Below are positions 2,208-59,331 of a DNA stretch of 64,000 bases, one piece after another. This DNA is from Escherichia coli. Lineage in GTDB: Bacteria; Pseudomonadota; Gammaproteobacteria; Enterobacterales; Enterobacteriaceae. Below the pieces are notes generated by a model. That model was given only the letters and a program-made list of their open reading frames with translations, made no database searches and was not told the origin of the DNA. The stretch lies in NCBI RefSeq assembly GCF_003334255.1, contig NZ_QOWU01000014.1. One strand, given 5' to 3'. The translations under genes and the position numbers were made by a program. Each line of letters opens with the position of its first letter. The stretch's first letter is position 1.

Positions 2208-3599
2208 TTACTGTTTTTCTGGTGGGAAAATCAGATTCAGCACGATGGCAGTAATACCGCCCGCGGCGATCCCGGAGGAGAGCAGGTTTTTCAGCCATTC
2301 AGGGGCAAACTGCAAAATCAGCGGCTGCTGAGACACGCCCAGACCAACCGCCAGCGACAGCGCGATAATCAGAATCGCCCGACGGTTCAGCGGCTCACGA
2401 GAAACGATACGCACACCGGAGGCGGCGATGGTGCCAAACATTACAAGCGTTGCGCCGCCCAGAACCGGTTCTGGAATGTGTTGTACAAAACCGCTCACTG
2501 CCGGGAACAGACCCAGCACGATCAACATCAGCGCGACGACAAAACCGACATAGCGGCTGGCAACACCAGTCAACTGGATCACTCCGTTGTTTTGCCCGAA
2601 GCAGGAGTTCGGGAAGGTGTTAAACACCGCCGAAACAAACGAGTTCAGGCCGTTTGCCAGCACGCCGCCTTTCAGGCGTTTCATGTACAGCGGACCGGAC
2701 ACTGGCTGTTCGGAAACGTCAGAGGTCGCCGTGATATCGCCAATGGTTTCCAGCGAAGTGATCATAAAGACCAGCATCAGCGGCAGCAGCAGACTCCATT
2801 CAATGCCAAGACCGTAATAGAGCGGCGTTGGCACCATAATCAGTTCTTGCGTCATAGGTTCGTTGCTTTCTGGCAACATGCCCATAAACCACGCCAGCGC
2901 ATATCCGGCCGCCATCGCAATTACCAGTGAGGCCACGCGTAAGTAAGGGTTACGTTGACGGTTAAGCAGGATAATTAAGGCTAAGACCACGCCTGCCAGC
3001 AGCAGATTTTTCGGTGCGCCGAAGGTGTTATCGCTCATGGCTGCGTAACCGCCGCCAATGGACGTTAACCCAACCTGAATTAGCGACAGGCCGATAATCA
3101 TCACCACAACGCCAGAAACCAGCGGCGTAATAATGCGGCGCGCCAGATGCAGAACGCGGGAGATCACCATCTCGGTGCAACTTGCCAGCATCAACGTGCC
3201 GAACAAAGCCGCCATCATGGTAGGAACATCAGCACCACCGGTTTTCAGCGCGGTACCGCCCATAATCAGCGGGGCAACAAAGTTGAAGCTGGTGCCCTGA
3301 ATAGACAACAGCCCGGAGCCAACCGGACCCCAGGCCTTAATTTGAATAATCGATGCCACACCGGAGGCAAACAGCGACATACTAATAATGTGTTGCGTGT
3401 CTTGTGCCGGTAAACCCAGCGCCTGGCAGATTAATAGCGCTGGCGTGATCACCGCAACGAACATCGCCAGCAGATGCTGACAGGCGGCAAACAGGGTTTG
3501 AGGAAGCGGCGGACGATCTTCAAGACGGTAAATCAGTTCGCTGTTTTGAGTCTGCGCAACCGGTTGCGCATTTTCTGACTCGAGGGTGGAAACAGACAT
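2208..3599 (-). CDS. xanP: xanthine permease (NCS2 family)
   Basis: polytopic membrane ORF; ATG 3 codons inside track ORF gives 463 aa starting [12 protein letters not shown]. Confidence 0.85.
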
Positions 3600-3878
3600 C
3601 GAAAACAATCCCGTGGTAGCAAAGCGGGCATTTTAGCTGACCGAAAGAGAAAAGCAAACGTTTGCCACATCCTCATCTAAATATTTAAATGAGATAAATG
3701 CACTTTTTTATATAACTTTTGGTATTTTTCTGCTTAAAATCCATGCCATTTGTTCATTAACAGCTGAGAATTTGACCCAGGAAAGCATAACTCGATACCC
3801 GTCATAGTTCATGAAGTTGCCACTGCGCGATGAAGTATGACGAGTATGAAAGAGTGATGCGGATACAAAGGAGTAACT

Positions 3879-5084
3879 ATGTTTCATCTCGATACTTTAG
3901 CAACGCTTGTTGCCGCAACGCTGACGTTGCTGCTCGGGCGTAAGTTGGTCCATTCCGTCTCCTTTTTGAAGAAATACACCATACCGGAACCTGTTGCGGG
4001 TGGTTTGTTGGTGGCGCTGGCGCTACTAGTACTGAAAAAAAGCATGGGCTGGGAAGTCAACTTTGATATGTCCCTGCGCGATCCGTTAATGCTGGCTTTC
4101 TTCGCCACCATTGGCCTGAACGCCAACATTGCCAGTTTGCGTGCCGGTGGGCGTGTGGTTGGCATCTTCTTGATTGTGGTTGTTGGTCTGTTGGTGATGC
4201 AAAATGCCATTGGCATTGGTATGGCTAGCTTGTTAGGGCTTGATCCGCTGATGGGGCTGTTGGCCGGTTCTATTACGCTTTCCGGCGGTCACGGTACGGG
4301 CGCTGCGTGGAGTAAATTGTTCATTGAACGTTATGGCTTCACCAATGCGACGGAAGTGGCGATGGCCTGTGCAACGTTCGGTCTGGTGCTGGGCGGCTTG
4401 ATTGGCGGTCCGGTGGCGCGCTATCTGGTGAAACACTCCACCACGCCGAACGGTATTCCGGATGACCAGGAAGTCCCGACGGCGTTTGAAAAGCCGGATG
4501 TGGGACGCATGATCACCTCGTTGGTGCTGATTGAAACTATCGCGCTGATTGCTATCTGCCTGACGGTGGGGAAAATTGTTGCGCAACTTTTGGCTGGCAC
4601 TGCTTTTGAACTGCCGACCTTCGTCTGTGTACTGTTTGTTGGCGTGATTCTGAGCAACGGTCTGTCAATAATGGGCTTTTACCGCGTCTTTGAGCGTGCG
4701 GTATCCGTGCTGGGTAACGTAAGCTTGTCGTTGTTCCTGGCGATGGCGTTGATGGGGCTGAAACTGTGGGAGCTGGCTTCGCTGGCGCTGCCGATGCTGG
4801 CGATTCTGGTGGTACAGACCATCTTCATGGCGTTGTATGCCATCTTCGTTACCTGGCGCATGATGGGCAAAAACTACGATGCGGCAGTGCTGGCTGCGGG
4901 TCACTGTGGTTTTGGCCTCGGTGCAACGCCAACGGCAATCGCCAACATGCAGGCGATCACTGAACGCTTTGGCCCGTCGCACATGGCGTTTTTGGTGGTG
5001 CCGATGGTCGGTGCGTTCTTTATCGATATCGTCAATGCGCTGGTAATTAAGTTGTATTTGATGTTGCCGATTTTTGCCGGTTAA
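3879..5084 (+). CDS. gltS: sodium/glutamate symporter
   Basis: 401-aa polytopic membrane protein, N-terminus MFHLDTLATLVAATLTLLLGRKL. Confidence 0.9.
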   Translation: MFHLDTLATLVAATLTLLLGRKLVHSVSFLKKYTIPEPVAGGLLVALALLVLKKSMGWEVNFDMSLRDPLMLAFFATIGLNANIASLRAGGRVVGIFLIVVVGLLVMQNAIGIGMASLLGLDPLMGLLAGSITLSGGHGTGAAWSKLFIERYGFTNATEVAMACATFGLVLGGLIGGPVARYLVKHSTTPNGIPDDQEVPTAFEKPDVGRMITSLVLIETIALIAICLTVGKIVAQLLAGTAFELPTFVCVLFVGVILSNGLSIMGFYRVFERAVSVLGNVSLSLFLAMALMGLKLWELASLALPMLAILVVQTIFMALYAIFVTWRMMGKNYDAAVLAAGHCGFGLGATPTAIANMQAITERFGPSHMAFLVVPMVGAFFIDIVNALVIKLYLMLPIFAG

Positions 5085-5252
5085 CCGATGAAGCGGCGGT
5101 AGAAGTGCCGCCGCAACAAAGACAAATGCCTGATACGCTTCGCTTATCAAGCCTGCGTATTGATTCATAATTTATTGAATTTGTAGGGTGATGAATCGCA
5201 TCCGGCAGGAAGGTAGGGTAACCTGAAATGGCGGTCTTCTCACTGCCGCCTT

Positions 5253-7334
5253 TTACGCATTCGAGTAACGTTCCGTCTCCGGCATCCAGCGTTCTATCAG
5301 GGCTTTTGCCTGTTGTGGGTAACGTTCGTGAATATGGCGTGCCAGGCGCTGAACTTCCGGGATCATCGCCTGATCGCGCAGTAAATCCGCCACTTTAAAT
5401 TCAGCATTACCCGTCTGACGCGTGCCTAACAATTCGCCAGGGCCGCGAATCTCCAGATCTTTTTGCGCAATCACAAAACCGTCGTTACTGTCGCGCAGCA
5501 CTTGCAGGCGAATTTGCGCCGTTTTAGAAAGCGGCGTTTTGTAGAGCAGCACGCAGTGAGAAGCCACCGCGCCACGACCTACGCGCCCGCGCAGCTGGTG
5601 TAACTGCGCCAGACCCAGACGCTCCGGGTTTTCGATAATCATCAGACTGGCGTTAGGCACATCAACGCCGACTTCAATAACGGTTGTGGCAACCAGCAGG
5701 TGTAGCTCACCTTGTTTAAACGACGCCATCACCGCCTGTTTCTCGGCAGGTTTCATCCGCCCGTGTACCAGGCCAACGTTCAACTCTGGTAGCGCCAGTT
5801 TCAACTCTTCCCAGGTAGCTTCCGCCGCCTGCGCTTCCAGCAATTCCGACTCTTCAATCAACGTACAAACCCAGTATGCCTGACGACCTTCAGTTATGCA
5901 GGCGTGGTGCACGCGGTCAATGATGTCGGTACGGCGGGTATCAGGAATAGCGACCGTAGTCACTGGCGTGCGGCCTGGCGGCAGCTCATCTATCACCGAG
6001 GTATCGAGATCGGCATACGCAGTCATTGCCAGCGTGCGGGGGATCGGCGTGGCGGTCATGATCAACTGATGCGGATGGAAGCCCTGCTGCTGGCCTTTCT
6101 CCCACAATGCCAGACGCTGATGCACGCCAAAACGATGCTGTTCGTCGATAATCACCAGCGCCAGGCCGTTAAACTGCACCTGTTCCTGGAAGATGGCGTG
6201 TGTACCGACAATCATCTGCACCTGACCGCTGGCGATGGCTTCCTGCTGTGCCAGCCGTGCTTTACCTTTCTGCTTACCGGCGAGCCAGCCCACTTCGATA
6301 CCGAGCGGTGCAAACCAGTTGCGGAAGTTATTGGCGTGCTGCTCGGCGAGTAATTCGGTTGGTGCCATCAATGCTACCTGTTTGCCGTGGGCAATCGCAC
6401 GCAACGCGGCGAGGGCGGCGACCAGCGTTTTACCGGAACCTACATCGCCCTGCACCAGACGCATCATCGGCACATCCAGCGCCATATCGCGCTCGATCTC
6501 CGCCACTACGCGTGCCTGTGCGCCCGTTGGCTTGAACGGTAAGGCGGCGAGGAGTTTATTTTTCAGCGTGTCATTGGCGCTCAGCGGCTGGGCATGAAAA
6601 CGCTGTGCTCCGGCACGTAAGGCTAACATGCTGAGGTTGTGCGCCAGCAGTTCTTCCAGAATCAGACGACGTTGCGCCGGATGCTGCCCGGTTTCCAGAT
6701 CGCTAAGCTGTAGCGTCGGTGGCGGGCGGTGCAAAGTGCGCAACGCTTCCGGTAGCGTCATCATTCCTTGTGACAGTTCCGGCGGCAGGAGTTCTTCAAT
6801 GGCGCAGGTGTCGAGCAGATCCAGCGCCTGGTCGGTTAATTTACGCAGCGTGGCCTGCTTTACGCCTTCCGTTGTTGGATAAACCGGCGTGAGCGTTTCC
6901 TGTAATTCTGGCGTGCTGAGATCGCCCTGCACGCGGTATTCCGGGTGGATCATCTCCGCACCATATTTACCGCGCTTTGCTTCGCCATAAGCCAGTACAC
7001 GGCGGCCCGCCGCCAGGCTATTTTTCATTGCCGCGCTGAAATTGAAAAAGCGCATGGTGAGGATGCCGGAACCGTCGCTGATCTGGCAGGTCATCATCCG
7101 CCGACCGCCGAAGGAGATATTGCAGTTCAGCACTTCGCCTTCCACCGTGGCATAAACGCCCGGCAGTAGTTCTCCGATGGGGTAGAGATGGGTGCGATCT
7201 TCGTAGCGCAGGGGAAGGTGTAAGAGTAGATCCTGCACGGTATGCAGGTTGATTTTCGCCAGTTTGTTACTAAGTGCTGCGCCAACGCCCGTTAGGGAAC
7301 TGAGTGGGACAGCATCTAACAGGCGACCTTTCAT
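5253..7334 (-). CDS. recG: ATP-dependent DNA helicase RecG
   Basis: 693 aa from internal ATG (MKGRLLDAVPLSSLTGVG); Walker A GSGKT and DEQHRFG helicase motifs present in translation. Confidence 0.93.
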   Translation of the reverse strand: MKGRLLDAVPLSSLTGVGAALSNKLAKINLHTVQDLLLHLPLRYEDRTHLYPIGELLPGVYATVEGEVLNCNISFGGRRMMTCQISDGSGILTMRFFNFSAAMKNSLAAGRRVLAYGEAKRGKYGAEMIHPEYRVQGDLSTPELQETLTPVYPTTEGVKQATLRKLTDQALDLLDTCAIEELLPPELSQGMMTLPEALRTLHRPPPTLQLSDLETGQHPAQRRLILEELLAHNLSMLALRAGAQRFHAQPLSANDTLKNKLLAALPFKPTGAQARVVAEIERDMALDVPMMRLVQGDVGSGKTLVAALAALRAIAHGKQVALMAPTELLAEQHANNFRNWFAPLGIEVGWLAGKQKGKARLAQQEAIASGQVQMIVGTHAIFQEQVQFNGLALVIIDEQHRFGVHQRLALWEKGQQQGFHPHQLIMTATPIPRTLAMTAYADLDTSVIDELPPGRTPVTTVAIPDTRRTDIIDRVHHACITEGRQAYWVCTLIEESELLEAQAAEATWEELKLALPELNVGLVHGRMKPAEKQAVMASFKQGELHLLVATTVIEVGVDVPNASLMIIENPERLGLAQLHQLRGRVGRGAVASHCVLLYKTPLSKTAQIRLQVLRDSNDGFVIAQKDLEIRGPGELLGTRQTGNAEFKVADLLRDQAMIPEVQRLARHIHERYPQQAKALIERWMPETERYSNA

Positions 7335-53414: not shown

Positions 53415-54002
53415 TTACTTTTGAAAGGCTTTTTTTAAGCTGATTTTGGAAATCAGCTCAGTCAGTGAAAGGACCATTGTTGATCGCACAGCCTGTTGAT
53501 AGCGCTGAATTTGCATTGCATACAAACTGGAGTCTGCTGGTTCAAACTGTGGCGGCGGTGGTAACGCCGCCACGCAGTGCAGTTCACCAAAGGGTCCAAG
53601 GATTTCGTCGTCGGTAAAGGCGTACTCGTTGCCGTCGTGATTTAGCTCTTCACGCAATGCCATCAGCAGTTCCGCATCTTCGTATTCCTGGCGGTTAATG
53701 ACGCCCAACCCGTAAATGAGTTTTAAACGCACAGAAAGATCGCCCAGCGGACCATCGCCGTCGAGTAACGGTTCTACAGCATACTTCACCGCGTAATCGT
53801 CTTTGCGGAATACCTGAAGCACCAGAAGATTTACCGCCTCGGTCAGGAGCTCGACGGCGGTGATCAGAAAGCTTCGCACGGTTTTGCCAGCATTCAGACG
53901 CTCAAGCACACGGTTTTCAAAGGCCTGGGTTTGTTCCATTGTTGCCTGCATATCTGACAATCTGTTATTCGGGCGCAGGGTGTCCTGCGCCTGGTCCACC
54001 AT
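53415..54002 (-). CDS. mtlR: mannitol operon repressor
   Basis: 195-aa ORF directly downstream of mtlD. Confidence 0.9.
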   Translation of the reverse strand: MVDQAQDTLRPNNRLSDMQATMEQTQAFENRVLERLNAGKTVRSFLITAVELLTEAVNLLVLQVFRKDDYAVKYAVEPLLDGDGPLGDLSVRLKLIYGLGVINRQEYEDAELLMALREELNHDGNEYAFTDDEILGPFGELHCVAALPPPPQFEPADSSLYAMQIQRYQQAVRSTMVLSLTELISKISLKKAFQK

Positions 54003-55379: not shown

Positions 55380-57293
55380 TTACTTACGACCTGCCAGCAG
55401 TTCCAGCACTTCATCCACGCTGGTGGTGTGTGCCAGACGCTCGATGACGGACTCATCATCCAGTGCATTGGTCAGGCTGGTGATAACCTGAATGTGCTCG
55501 TTGTTACGGGCAGCAATACCAATCACCAGACGGGCAATGTCATCTTCTTCTTCACCGAAGCGCACGCCTTCCGGGTACTGGCAGAACACGACGCCCGTTT
55601 TCAGTACGCGATCTTTCGCTTCAACCGTACCGTGTGGCACCGCGATAGACTCACCCAGATAAGTCGGGGTCAGTTTTTCACGATCCAGCATCGCCTGAAC
55701 GTATTCCGGCTCAACGTAACCGCCTTTCACCAGCTGCTCGCCAGCAAAACGAATCGCTTCTTCTTTGGTTGCCGCTTTGCGACCGAGGAAGATGTTCTCC
55801 GCGCCTAGCTTGAACAGGTTAGCACTGGAATCGTCAAAGCTGTCTTTCAGGCTGTCTTTTACTTTCTCTTCGTTTGCCGTGTGGCGTTGGGCAGCAACCA
55901 GACGTTCGGTCAGGCTGGTGTACAGGCCGCTGTCGAGGAAGTTGGTCAGCGAAATATGCTGTGCCTGCGGAACCTGGCGCATAGCGCGTTCGGTCAGGTC
56001 ACGGTGAGTGATGACGAGGTCCACATCTGGCGGCAGGTTGTTGATCGCGCTGTTAGTAACAGAAATCTGCGACAGACCTGCATCCTGAATTTTCTTACGC
56101 AGAACGCCTGCGCCCATCGCACTGGAACCCATACCGGCGTCACAGGCAACGATGATTTTACGTACGTGGCTCAGGTCGTTAGTCACATCGCCAGCAGACA
56201 GCGGAGATGCGCCTTTAGACTCAGCTTTCATGTCCTGCATACGACGAGTTGCTGCTTCAATATCATCTTCTTCTTTCACTTTGCTGGTTTTCAGCAAAAT
56301 AGCAGAGACAACGAAGGAGACAGCCATCGCCGCACACACACCCGCGATGTTAGCGAAGTAAGCACCTTTTGGTGTCATCGCCAGTACAGCAAGGATAGAA
56401 CCCGGAGATGCCGGAGAAACCAGACCACCGCCCAGGATAGTCAGCGTGAACACGCCAGTCATACCGCCGAGGATGACTGCGAGGATCAGACGCGGATTCA
56501 TCAGCACATACGGGAAGTAGATTTCGTGGATACCCCCCAGGAAGTGGATGATTGCCGCACCGCCCGCAGACTGTTTAGCGCTACCACGACCAAAGAACAT
56601 GTACGCCAGCAGCACGCCCATACCTGGACCTGGGTTAGCTTCAATCAGGAAGAAGATTGATTTACCCAGTTCATGGGACTGCTGAATACCCAGCGGCGAG
56701 AAGATACCGTGGTTAATGGCGTTGTTGAGGAACAGGATTTTCGCCGGTTCAACAAAGATAGACGCCAGCGGCAGCATGTCATGGACAACCATGAAGTTAA
56801 CGCCCGCAGCCAGCATTTTGGACAGGGCTTCAACAATCGGGCCAATGCCGAGGAATGCCAGAATAGCGAGGATCATCCCGATGATGCCTGCGGAGAAGTT
56901 ATTCACCAGCATCTCAAAACCGGATTTGATCTTACCGTCTACCCAGCGGTCGAAGTGCTTAATGCACCAGCCGCCCAGCGGACCTGCAATCATAGAACCG
57001 AGGAACATCGGCATGTCTGCGCCGACGATAACGCCCATGGTGGTGATGGCACCGACTACGCCGCCACGTTCGCCGCCTACCAGCTTACCACCGGTATAAC
57101 CGATCAGCAGCGGCAGGAGATAAGTGATCATCGGCCCGACCAGCTTCGCCAGCGTCTCGTTCGGTAACCACCCTGTTGGAATAAATAACGCGGTGATGAT
57201 ACCCCACGCGATAAACGCGCCGATATTTGGCATCACCATGTTGCTGAGGAAACGACCAAAGCTTTGCACTTTGATCTTAATATCGGATGACAT
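55380..57293 (-). CDS. mtlA: PTS mannitol-specific EIICBA component
   Basis: 637 aa [39 protein letters not shown]. Confidence 0.95.
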
Positions 57294-57436
57294 AAAAACA
57301 CCCCTTCTTATGTTTGCTGTCGCGCAGGCTGGAAGCCCGAGGTTTTTTGTTAATGTGGCGGCAGAGGTAGCCGGACCTTGTAGATACTGCGAAATCTGGC
57401 ACTGAATCGGTTAACTGTCCAGTCGACGGCCTTTTG

Positions 57437-57613
57437 TGTGATATCAATCACATAAATATAGGGGGTAGAGAGGTAATTGACGTGACGTTCATCACAAAAC
57501 GCTTGTGTAAAAAAGCAACAAGGCGGCGATTTTCGCTAAAAATGGCATTTAAATGTGAGTAGTGTCACATTTTTGTTTTGATGGTTTGTTGAATCTTTGT
57601 GATCTGAATCACA
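57437..57613. promoter_or_regulatory. array of four CRP-type palindromes upstream of mtlA
   Basis: TGTGA-N6-TCACA at about 57437-57452, 57481-57496 (CGTGA half-site), 57554-57569 and 57598-57613, plus a half-site near 57641; coordinates +/-2 bp. Confidence 0.65.
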
Positions 57614-57829
57614 AGATATTTTCTTACGGCGTTCACCTGATGTGATCTACAGCATGTTATGCCTTCGTCATACAATCGTTATGTAACTAAGCAACTCATC
57701 ACCTCTAAAAATTATTCTTTGGTGTTATGGCGAGAATCGCGAACCCGGATTATTGTCAAAATATCAGCCTGACTCCCTTCTGGCTGCCAGCCCAAAAACA
57801 ACACTGATAAACGTGAATCCGAGGCAGAT

Positions 57830-58192
57830 ATGTTTCTAAACTATTTCGCGTTGGGAGTGCTGATCTTCGTCTTTCTGGTGATTTTTTATGGAATCATCGC
57901 GATACATGACATCCCTTATCTGATTGCCAAAAAGCGCAACCATCCCCATGCCGACGCTATTCATACGGCGGGCTGGGTGAGCCTGTTTACTCTGCATGTT
58001 ATCTGGCCGTTTCTGTGGATCTGGGCGACGCTCTATCAACCGGAGCGTGGCTGGGGTATGCAGTCACATGTTGCGTCGCAGGAGAAAGCGACTGACCCGG
58101 AAATCGCCGCACTTTCTGACCGAATTTCCCGGCTGGAGCATCAACTCGCCGCCGAGAAAAAGACTGACTATTCCACGTTCCCGGAGATCTAA
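57830..58192 (+). CDS. yibI: DUF3302 small inner membrane protein
   Basis: 120 aa with two N-terminal TM helices; divergent from mtlA. Confidence 0.85.
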
Positions 58193-58194
58193 TT

Positions 58195-59331
58195 ATGGAT
58201 CTATTGATTGTTTTAACTTACGTGGCGCTGGCGTGGGCGGTCTTTAAAATCTTCCGCATTCCGGTAAATCAGTGGACGCTGGCGACGGCGGCGCTGGGAG
58301 GCGTGTTTCTGGTGAGTGGTTTGATTTTGTTGATGAACTACAACCACCCTTACACTTTTACCGCGCAAAAGGCAGTGATAGCGATCCCTATCACGCCACA
58401 GGTGACGGGAATTGTTACTGAAGTCACTGACAAGAATAATCAGCTTATTCAAAAGGGCGAGGTGCTTTTTAAGCTCGACCCGGTTCGTTACCAGGCGCGA
58501 GTTGACAGACTTCAGGCTGACCTGATGACGGCGACGCATAATATAAAGACGCTGCGTGCGCAGCTCACTGAAGCGCAGGCCAACACCACCCAGGTTTCAG
58601 CGGAGCGCGACCGTCTGTTTAAAAATTATCAACGTTACTTGAAAGGCAGCCAGGCGGCGGTGAATCCGTTCTCGGAACGTGACATCGACGATGCGCGGCA
58701 AAATTTCCTCGCGCAGGATGCGCTGGTGAAAGGCTCGGTGGCGGAGCAGGCGCAGATCCAGAGCCAGCTCGACAGTATGGTTAACGGCGAGCAATCGCAG
58801 ATTGTGAGCTTAAGAGCGCAACTTACTGAAGCAAAATATAACCTTGAGCAGACTGTCATTCGCGCGCCGAGCAATGGCTACGTTACTCAGGTACTGATCC
58901 GCCCAGGTACATACGCAGCTGCCTTGCCGCTGCGTCCGGTGATGGTCTTCATCCCCGAGCAAAAACGGCAAATTGTCGCCCAATTTCGGCAAAACTCGCT
59001 GTTACGTCTGAAACCCGGCGATGATGCGGAAGTGGTGTTTAACGCGCTACCTGGGCAGGTGTTTCACGGCAAACTGACTAGTATTTTACCTGTCGTGCTA
59101 GGCGGTTCTTATCAGGCGCAGGGGGTATTGCAATCATTAACGGTCGTGCCCGGCACGGACGGTGTGCTGGGAACCATTGAACTGGACCCTAACGATGATA
59201 TCGATGCCTTACCCGACGGCATCTACGCCCAGGTGGCGGTTTACTCCGACCATTTCAGCCATGTTTCGGTGATGCGGAAAGTGCTGCTAAGAATGACCAG
59301 CTGGATGCATTATCTTTATTTGGATCATTGA
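58195..59331 (+). CDS. yibH: HlyD-family membrane fusion protein
   Basis: 378 aa with N-terminal TM and coiled-coil; 3 bp after yibI. Confidence 0.85.

Follow-up and report, generated by a model that had tools for sequence, protein, structure and literature searches.

A CRP-site array of conserved spacing in the mtlADR operator-promoter of Escherichia coli

The closest described system is the mtlADR operator of Escherichia coli K-12, whose CRP sites were reportedly first described by Ramseier and Saier in 1995 (Microbiology 141:1901). The published centres of CRP1 to CRP5 are at -262.5, -219.5, -175.5, -102.5 and -58.5 from the mtlA start of transcription, at successive distances of 43, 44, 73 and 44 bp (PMC13421365). 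The start of transcription itself is a literature value from S1 mapping in 1983.

This operator was studied by Lee et al. (NAR 2026, 54:gkag751, PMC13421365) using EMSA, chromosomal site mutants and qRT-PCR. MtlR lacks a DNA-binding domain and gives a supershift of CRP-DNA complexes solely when two CRP dimers are 43-46 bp apart. The supershift is seen on CRP1-2, CRP2-3 and CRP4-5, and none is seen on CRP3-4 (73 bp) or on the malK operator (PMC13421365). CRP2, CRP4 and CRP5 are each essential for mtl expression and growth on mannitol, and mutation of CRP3 causes only a slight reduction because CRP1 can substitute for it by pairing with CRP2, with partial compensation (PMC13421365). CRP1, which matches only 7 of 10 consensus positions, is dispensable, and on the wild-type operator in vitro it stays empty as long as CRP2 and CRP3 can be bound (PMC13421365).

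With mannitol, dephosphorylated enzyme II-Mtl (MtlA) holds MtlR at the membrane, and mtl is induced because MtlR is sequestered there. With glucose, dephosphorylated HPr competes for the same MtlR surface, bringing repression back (PMC13421365). In 2017, the same laboratory could not detect the MtlR-CRP interaction; according to the 2026 paper, this is because two CRP dimers must be bound to DNA at the correct spacing. Lee et al. give no settled reason why the sites from -102.5 to -219.5 are needed in activation, and raise phase-dependent looping as a possibility (PMC13421365). The mechanism of MtlR bridging comes from this single paper. The region is, to date, the best case of a repressor reading the distance between two bound activators rather than DNA.

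Three other systems are similar in part. First, at deoP2, as at mtl, a repressor is recruited to tandem CRP sites via contacts with CRP, which serves both as activator and as anti-activator platform. CytR, however, belongs to the LacI family and binds DNA between the CRP sites, whereas MtlR without any DNA-binding domain reads only the distance between CRP dimers. Second, malEp-malKp also has several CRP sites in a divergent intergenic region and forms a higher-order activation complex, but both promoters are regulated there with MalT as partner, whereas the mtl array has a conserved geometry toward mtlA alone. Third, the pap CRP site at -215 activates from far upstream in a helical-phase-dependent manner, and is cited by Lee et al. 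as a precedent for the need for CRP2-CRP4. At pap, one remote site acts together with Lrp and H-NS, as opposed to the ordered four-site array of mtl.

The window, which is the whole 64-kb stretch of E. coli DNA analysed here, contains this locus with the following genes.

53415-54002, minus strand: mtlR, NCBIfam NF008234 MltR family (256 bits, cut-off 149) and annotation
55380-57293, minus strand: mtlA, mannitol PTS enzyme IICBA, 637 codons, NCBIfam NF011663 (1324 bits) and RefSeq annotation
57830-58192, plus strand: yibI (DUF3302), RefSeq annotation of the identical region
58195-59331, plus strand: yibH (HlyD-family adaptor), annotation and NCBIfam efflux-adaptor (HlyD-type) matches

The intergenic gap between the minus-strand and plus-strand ORFs is 536 bp long (57294-57829). 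It is 100% identical to the K-12-type (O16:H48) and O157:H7 E. coli chromosomes, and 5405 of 5426 complete E. coli genomes carry it, once each. The operon order is mtlA-mtlD-mtlR in the RefSeq annotation of the identical K-12-type region, and an MltR-family repressor without a DNA-binding domain is encoded, as mtlR, within the operon it regulates. When the intergenic region was scanned against Rfam with E-values up to 1, no known RNA element was found, and the scan gave no E. coli equivalent of MtlS, an antisense RNA of Vibrio.

A pattern search for TGTGA-N6-TCACA finds four sites, three perfect and one with one mismatch, and a weak fifth site at 57437-57656. They are listed below with their scores and window ranks by the CRP matrix described later.

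57437-57452: CRP5, TGTGATATCAATCACA, perfect core, centre 57444.5, 18.1 bits, rank 2
57481-57496: CRP4, CGTGACGTTCATCACA, one mismatch, centre 57488.5, 16.3 bits, rank 3
57554-57569: CRP3, TGTGAGTAGTGTCACA, perfect core, centre 57561.5, 14.7 bits, rank 4
57598-57613: CRP2, TGTGATCTGAATCACA, perfect core, centre 57605.5, 19.7 bits, rank 1
57641-57656: CRP1 (weak), TGTGATCTACAGCATG, one good half-site, centre 57648.5, 10.1 bits, rank 14

The mtlA ATG is at 57293 on the minus strand, and the centres lie 151.5, 195.5, 268.5, 312.5 and 355.5 bp upstream of it, in order from CRP5 to CRP1. The centre-to-centre distances in the same order are 44 bp (CRP5-CRP4 pair), 73 bp (CRP4-CRP3 gap), 44 bp (CRP3-CRP2 pair) and 43 bp (CRP2-CRP1 pair). 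The original prediction, made from the sequence of the window, was of four to five CRP-type palindromes at 57437-57650 with phasing of about 44 and 73 bp, and direct reading and the pattern search bear out the sites and the phasing. The start of the predicted range and the four strong sites also stand, and the end falls short, clipping the fifth site by 6 bp. The assignment to CRP, and to an mtl promoter already known to have multiple CRP sites, is confirmed as well, as the sequence is identical to the K-12-type one and the sites are the published CRP5-CRP1.

Thus, the array is the five long-known CRP sites of the E. coli mtlADR operator and is already known. It is the same object as the K-12 operator, with the same sequence, the same five sites, equal spacings and equal positions from the start of transcription, and nothing in the window differing. 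The phasing had been called less obvious in the original prediction. The paper of July 2026, however, already explains the 43-44 bp distances as the docking geometry of MtlR on two CRP dimers (PMC13421365), and the three close distances here, 44, 44 and 43 bp, all fall within its 43-46 bp range.

Binding of CRP at these sites has been reported by several approaches. CRP ChIP-seq in ETEC gives two peaks in this spacer with exactly these motifs, that of CRP5 being under an 'mtlA' peak and those of CRP2 and CRP1 under a 'yibI' peak, with CRP4 also among the ChIP-seq motifs (PMC4287617). In CRP genomic SELEX, the yibI/mtlA spacer is the second most abundant clone class (Shimada et al.), and in PhyloScan it ranks as the top CRP prediction genome-wide. 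Together with the above-described EMSA and mutants, CRP binding, spacing-dependent MtlR docking and site-mutant phenotypes have all been shown in the literature.

Two elements were read in the DNA between the array and mtlA.

57393-57421, minus strand: deduced mtlA core promoter, with -35 TGGACA (57421-57416), a 17-bp spacer, TGc and -10 CAGATT (57398-57393)
57402-57415: candidate Cra (FruR) operator, CTGAATCGGTTAAC, in the -35/-10 spacer

The deduced start of transcription is at about 57386, leaving a 5' UTR of 93 nt to the ATG at 57293. Measured from this start, the CRP5 centre is at -58.5 and the CRP4 centre at -102.5. Because the deduced -10 and -35 put CRP5 exactly at its published -58.5, the site assignment is internally consistent. 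TGGACAG and GCCAGATT are conserved across Enterobacteriaceae, and their distance to CRP5 is fixed.

A scan of 57250-57880 for consensus promoters and terminators found no mtlA or yibI promoter, and it missed the mtlA promoter because the -10 hexamer matches at only 3 of 6 positions. A poor -10 match is usual in activator-dependent promoters. The scan's lone promoter-like match is on the wrong strand, across the mtlA start codon, and the lone terminator-like hairpin lies in the -35 region. Both are taken as chance, since their counts equal the shuffle expectation.

The canonical position of a class I CRP site is -61.5, with class I or class III sites also placed whole helical turns further upstream. 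With the literature start of transcription, CRP4 at -102.5 fits class I phasing and CRP5 at -58.5 is 3 bp off. We take CTGAATCGGTTAAC as a Cra operator candidate on the basis of 11 matches out of 14 to the Cra consensus, and the candidate is moderately conserved in the Enterobacterales alignment. A Cra site in the mtl promoter is stated to exist, its position not being given (PMC13421365).

We are confident that the region is the operator-promoter of mtlADR, in which four strong sites and one weak site for cAMP-CRP lie upstream of a weak σ70 promoter and provide docking places for MtlR. The operator would work as follows. At high cAMP, CRP dimers would occupy CRP5, CRP4, CRP3 and CRP2, all individually indispensable except CRP3. 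The proximal CRP site probably touches RNA polymerase, and the distal sites probably shape DNA. The 73-bp gap, of about 7 helical turns, may keep both CRP pairs on one face of DNA in one nucleoprotein complex. For repression, MtlR would recognise the 43-44 bp distances in the CRP5/4 pair and in the CRP3/2 (or CRP2/1) pair. For induction, dephosphorylated MtlA would act as a membrane sink for MtlR, and with glucose, dephosphorylated HPr would displace MtlR from MtlA, returning repression.

Conservation of the layout was examined in a survey of MtlA loci with one genome per species, using a phylogenetically uncorrected set, the best 80 of more than 600 tblastn candidates, with up to 2.5 kb of upstream DNA each. 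The same CRP matrix was applied over 700 bp upstream of MtlA. The survey spans about 45 gammaproteobacterial species, as compared with four non-E. coli operators in Lee et al. 2026.

The exact 44-73-44 layout is present in 37 of 37 Enterobacterales loci with four detected sites used for anchored alignment. Their genera include Escherichia, Citrobacter, Enterobacter, Leclercia, Phytobacter, Cedecea, Pluralibacter, Mangrovibacter, Klebsiella, Serratia, Pantoea, Erwinia, Yersinia, Rahnella, Hafnia and Budvicia. CRP1 is found at 41-43 bp in 15 of the 37 loci. Other layouts are as follows, with distances in bp from proximal to distal where three or two are given.

Aeromonas: 44-73-45
Photobacterium: 43-73-45
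Three Vibrio species (fortis, hibernica, Isolate32): 43-73-44
Vibrio S17_S38: 43-117, which is 73+44 with the third site decayed
V. ruber: 43-117-51
Providencia: central gap 72
Edwardsiella: central gap 63
Aliagarivorans: central gap 84

Reduced layouts also occur, as Gilliamella has a single 44-bp pair, and Actinobacillus has such a pair and a third site 40 bp further upstream. An MtlR homologue is encoded downstream in every array-bearing gammaproteobacterial locus except Aliagarivorans and a truncated Vibrio contig. On the other hand, the Firmicutes MtlA loci among the best 80, which are without this kind of MtlR, show no such CRP sites.

The array lies between divergent genes, and the distal sites CRP1 and CRP2 could regulate yibI-yibH by cAMP in addition to their role for mtlADR. 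We regard such bidirectional control as unlikely, the points in its favour being weak. According to Shimada et al., divergent regions are often CRP-controlled both ways, and the opposite gene was counted by them as a predicted target. The ChIP-seq peak with CRP2 and CRP1 was assigned to yibI by proximity (Haycocks et al., PMC4287617). An RNA polymerase SELEX study lists, for this spacer, a weak σ70-like TCTACA-19-TACAAT that is directed toward yibI (57646-57676) and overlaps CRP1. In addition, urine, which is poor in glucose, induces yibI promoter clones.

However, one such clone argues the other way. It was obtained in UTI89 by promoter trapping (DFI) from 144 bp upstream of the yibI ATG and is still active in urine. 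Its start corresponds to about 57686 in the window, past all five sites, when coordinates are checked against the UTI89 record. Because it starts only 144 bp from the ATG, it contains neither a CRP site nor the TACAAT. In E. coli GPEC1054, moreover, an IS21-family element is inserted at about 57629/57630, separating CRP2 from CRP1 and yibI. CRP1 is also the site that is unoccupied in the wild-type operator in vitro (PMC13421365), and the appearance of yibIH among candidates in a nitric-oxide response study hints at other signals. A search of the literature turned up no yibI expression data in crp mutants.

The survey also speaks against control of yibI-yibH by the array. Among the 37 species with the exact array, tblastn places yibI-yibH no more than 2.5 kb upstream of mtlA in just 10, and CRP1 is present in 5 of the 10 loci with yibI versus 10 of the 27 without yibI. 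Measured from CRP2, the yibI start lies about 220 bp away in Escherichia and Citrobacter; in Leclercia and Enterobacter this distance is about 350 bp, and in Pseudescherichia vulneris about 120 bp. Across species, the distance from the array to yibI ranges over about 120-355 bp with no conserved geometry. Linkage and geometry conserved toward both divergent promoters, as in the malE/malK type, were thus not found. The original prediction had left an effect on yibI-yibH as a less obvious matter, and the comparisons of linkage, CRP1 presence and distance, along with the 144-bp clone, lend it no support. The yibI-yibH pair is a lineage-restricted neighbour and, on present evidence, not part of the device.

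Three other candidates on the yibI side were tried and rejected. A conserved block at 57722-57745, which includes ATGGCG, was considered as a small leader ORF, but it has no ribosome-binding site and its frame ends after 8-9 codons in Leclercia and RIT691. The same block was considered by eye as a σ54 promoter, but its GG-GC distance is 10 and not 12. Control of yibI by NsrR, prompted by the urine and nitric-oxide screens, was looked for in the literature, which gave nothing usable.

As to the mtlADR operator itself, its CRP sites could be ordinary additive activator sites, the 44/73/44 spacing being a functionless historical accident frozen in E. coli. Many CRP-dependent promoters do carry several sites at varied spacing, and the E. 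coli spacers share no sequence with one another. Whether distances are held where sequences are not was read from an ungapped alignment of the 37 Enterobacterales loci anchored on the proximal site, with ten core positions per site. Mean core conservation, out of 2 bits, is 1.60 for CRP5, 1.65 for CRP4, 1.61 for CRP3 and 1.72 for CRP2, and is 0.37 for CRP1. The spacers have 0.45-0.68 bits in this alignment, with a median between-species identity of 43%.

The distances thus stay constant across 37 species from many genera, while spacer identity is only about 43%. In contrast, 15 different distances (145.5-190.5 bp) are found between the proximal site and the ATG. At least 14 length changes have occurred in the adjoining 93-nt leader, and the probability that none would hit the 113 spacer bases is about 1.5e-5, a rough figure that assumes an even spread and ignores kinship. 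The same layout also recurs in Aeromonas and Vibrionaceae, the only large departures of the central gap, 63 and 84 bp, are by whole helical turns, and MtlR docking in EMSA is restricted to 43-46 bp. A functionless spacing is already contradicted by these observations, and we consider it highly improbable.

Lengths are kept while spacer sequences diverge, and therefore the pattern is as the spacing code predicts. As seen in sequence comparison, conservation of the 44-bp distances supports Lee et al. 2026 independently. The comparative layout data are inexpensive independent support for the spacing code, and the recognition of this textbook region in the window adds nothing new on E. coli itself.

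MtlR docking concerns the distances within pairs, and the 73-bp gap between pairs stands out through its conservation to the base pair while the spacers diverge. All 37 Enterobacterales species keep it unchanged, and it is seen again in Aeromonas, Photobacterium and Vibrio. With 10.5 bp to the turn, gaps of 63, 73 and 84 bp correspond to 6.0, 6.95 and 8.0 turns. The gap departs from 73 bp by whole helical turns in two species (Edwardsiella and Aliagarivorans) and by 1 bp in one (Providencia). This conservation favours the view that the helical phase between the pairs may matter.

We are evenly divided on a further reading, in which the 73-bp gap is constrained to the base pair and both pairs face the same side, the four CRP dimers forming a single wrapped or looped complex that may or may not include two MtlR dimers. 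If so, the geometry of the complex, beyond occupancy, would account for indispensable sites as far out as -219.5. Conservation of the 73-bp distance is not reported in Lee et al. 2026, and goes slightly beyond the literature.

The strength of the sites was evaluated with a symmetrised 16-bp CRP matrix made from 103 ChIP-seq motifs of ETEC H10407 (Haycocks et al. 2015, PMC4287617, Table 1), which are MEME predictions under ChIP peaks and not footprints. Four motifs of the mtl/yibI region itself were excluded from its training. Position-weight-matrix scoring had been proposed as a check on the predicted sites, and poor scoring was not seen; the four strong sites, at 14.7-19.7 bits, occupy ranks 1-4 among about 64,000 positions of the window. 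The 103 ChIP-seq sites, for comparison, have a median of 12.8 bits and a 10th percentile of 8.2 bits, the latter being exceeded by CRP1 at 10.1 bits.

In the pattern search, these four are the only matches with at most one mismatch in the 64-kb window, and all of them fall within 177 bp. First-order Markov simulation of the window (1000 runs) predicts 0.28 sites of at least 14.5 bits per 64 kb versus 4 observed, and none of the 1000 runs puts 3 or more such sites within 250 bp. Pairs of sites (at least 8 bits each) 40-48 bp apart occur in the window only as the three of the array. A site of CRP1 quality would be found 43-46 bp beyond a given end of the array by chance with a probability of about 6e-4. 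Two matrix matches inside yibH, 58380-58395 (11.8 bits) and 58413-58428 (9.5 bits), are taken as background because about 7.5 sites of at least 10 bits are expected per 64 kb.

That the palindromes are chance matches in AT-rich intergenic DNA has practically no probability left and is already refuted: the plain pattern count is unremarkable, as 14 of 100 shuffles give at least four matches in the window, but four sites of matrix ranks 1-4 lie within 177 bp, no comparable clustering appears in simulations, the sites are conserved across bacterial orders, and their binding has been demonstrated experimentally in the literature. The CRP sites of the mtlADR operator exist, score as first-rate CRP sites, far exceed chance and hold their positions to the base pair across Enterobacterales.

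Variation at shorter evolutionary range was viewed in six E. coli sequences and E. albertii. Substitutions are found in the N6 centres and spacers, and none falls in the ten core bases of CRP4 or of CRP5. A core substitution occurs in CRP3 in E. albertii and in a single E. coli strain (SCPM), and in CRP2 in E. albertii. No length change is found inside the array in these seven sequences. In stationary-phase lineages kept for 1,200 days, a 1-bp insertion somewhere in the mtlA/yibI spacer reached fixation (PMC7858067); if placed within a 44-bp pair, it would make the distance 45 bp and could naturally tune the docking of MtlR. All indels are on the yibI side, namely a 1-bp deletion in the A-run at about 57707-57712 in UTI89 and HM50, and a 1-bp deletion at about 57794 in E. 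albertii.

Between the CRP sites of the mtlADR operator (published as CRP5 to CRP1, from the mtlA-proximal to the distal end), one block is near-invariant among the 37 Enterobacterales loci that have the exact 44-73-44 layout, with columns reaching about 1.9 bits of alignment conservation. It lies in the CRP2-CRP3 spacer and reads AACAAA(G/C), while the spacers outside it are only about 43% identical in the same loci. A T7 tract is also conserved in Enterobacteriaceae. Negative positions below are relative to the mtlA start of transcription.

Conserved blocks in the CRP spacers
About 57585-57590, plus strand TTTGTT; -204 to -199 on the mtlA strand: AACAAA(G/C) block
About 57507-57517; -131 to -121: T7 tract TTTTTTTACAC

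The AACAAA(G/C) block falls beyond the 22-bp CRP footprints. It could serve as a binding site, for Fis or some other protein, or influence how readily the DNA bends. The block is missing from Vibrio and Aeromonas.

MtlR, a repressor without a DNA-binding domain, docks on two CRP dimers 43-46 bp apart (Lee et al. 2026). In a 1,200-day stationary-phase evolution experiment, a 1-bp insertion in the mtlA/yibI intergenic region was fixed in a lineage (PMC7858067), and its place is of interest because of this docking window. In E. coli GPEC1054, from chicken, an IS21-family element (istA, istB; about 2.65 kb) separates CRP2 from CRP1.

Insertion in the operator
About 57629/57630; positions 3336-6150 of its surveyed MtlA locus, L083: IS21-family insertion of GPEC1054

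CRP2-CRP5 and mtlA are undamaged, and CRP1 and yibI are moved about 2.7 kb off, making this natural variant consistent with a dispensable CRP1.

Downstream of the CRP sites, the core promoter has its sequence swapped between groups with its geometry retained (57393-57421 versus survey loci L020-L035). It is CTGGACAG...GTGCCAGATT in Enterobacteriaceae and CTACGCA...GTGATAGAGT in Yersinia, Serratia, Pantoea, Erwinia, Hafnia and Budvicia, the distance from the -10 element to the proximal CRP site being equal within about 1 bp across both types. The stretch 57294-57425, which comprises the mtlA 5′ leader and the core promoter, shows no differences among six diverse E. coli genomes and a single different base in E. 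albertii; the CRP spacers immediately upstream do vary in this comparison. Leader length differs by genus: the ATG and the proximal CRP site are separated by 15 distinct distances. The leader matches no Rfam family.

On the divergent side lie yibI and yibH (57830-59331). Promoter clones of yibI are induced 5.6-fold in human urine, a UTI89 yibI deletion mutant loses competition in urine (competitive index 0.33), and a study of the nitric-oxide response in CFT073 included yibIH among the operons that it tested as candidates. Taken together, these reports suggest that yibI-yibH is controlled by signals other than cAMP. A conserved block is kept here in 9 of the 10 yibI-bearing loci, and a deletion in P. 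vulneris removes most of it.

Conserved block upstream of yibI
57722-57745; about 100 bp upstream of the yibI ATG: GTGTTATGGCGAGAATCGCGAACC

This block may act as the promoter of yibI or as an operator, and it is contained in the 144-bp fragment that showed promoter activity when UTI89 clones were screened in urine. Neither a leader ORF nor a sigma-54 promoter fits it.

Within the yibH coding sequence, two moderate CRP-matrix matches are found 33 bp apart.

CRP-matrix matches in yibH
58380-58395: 11.8 bits
58413-58428: 9.5 bits

Chance alone would be expected to give this many in the window. Elsewhere, an ETEC ChIP-seq table (PMC4287617) lists a CRP peak with no detectable motif at lldP, about 5 kb away from the one at mtlA; the lldP gene is expected inside this window, on the far side of mtlR.
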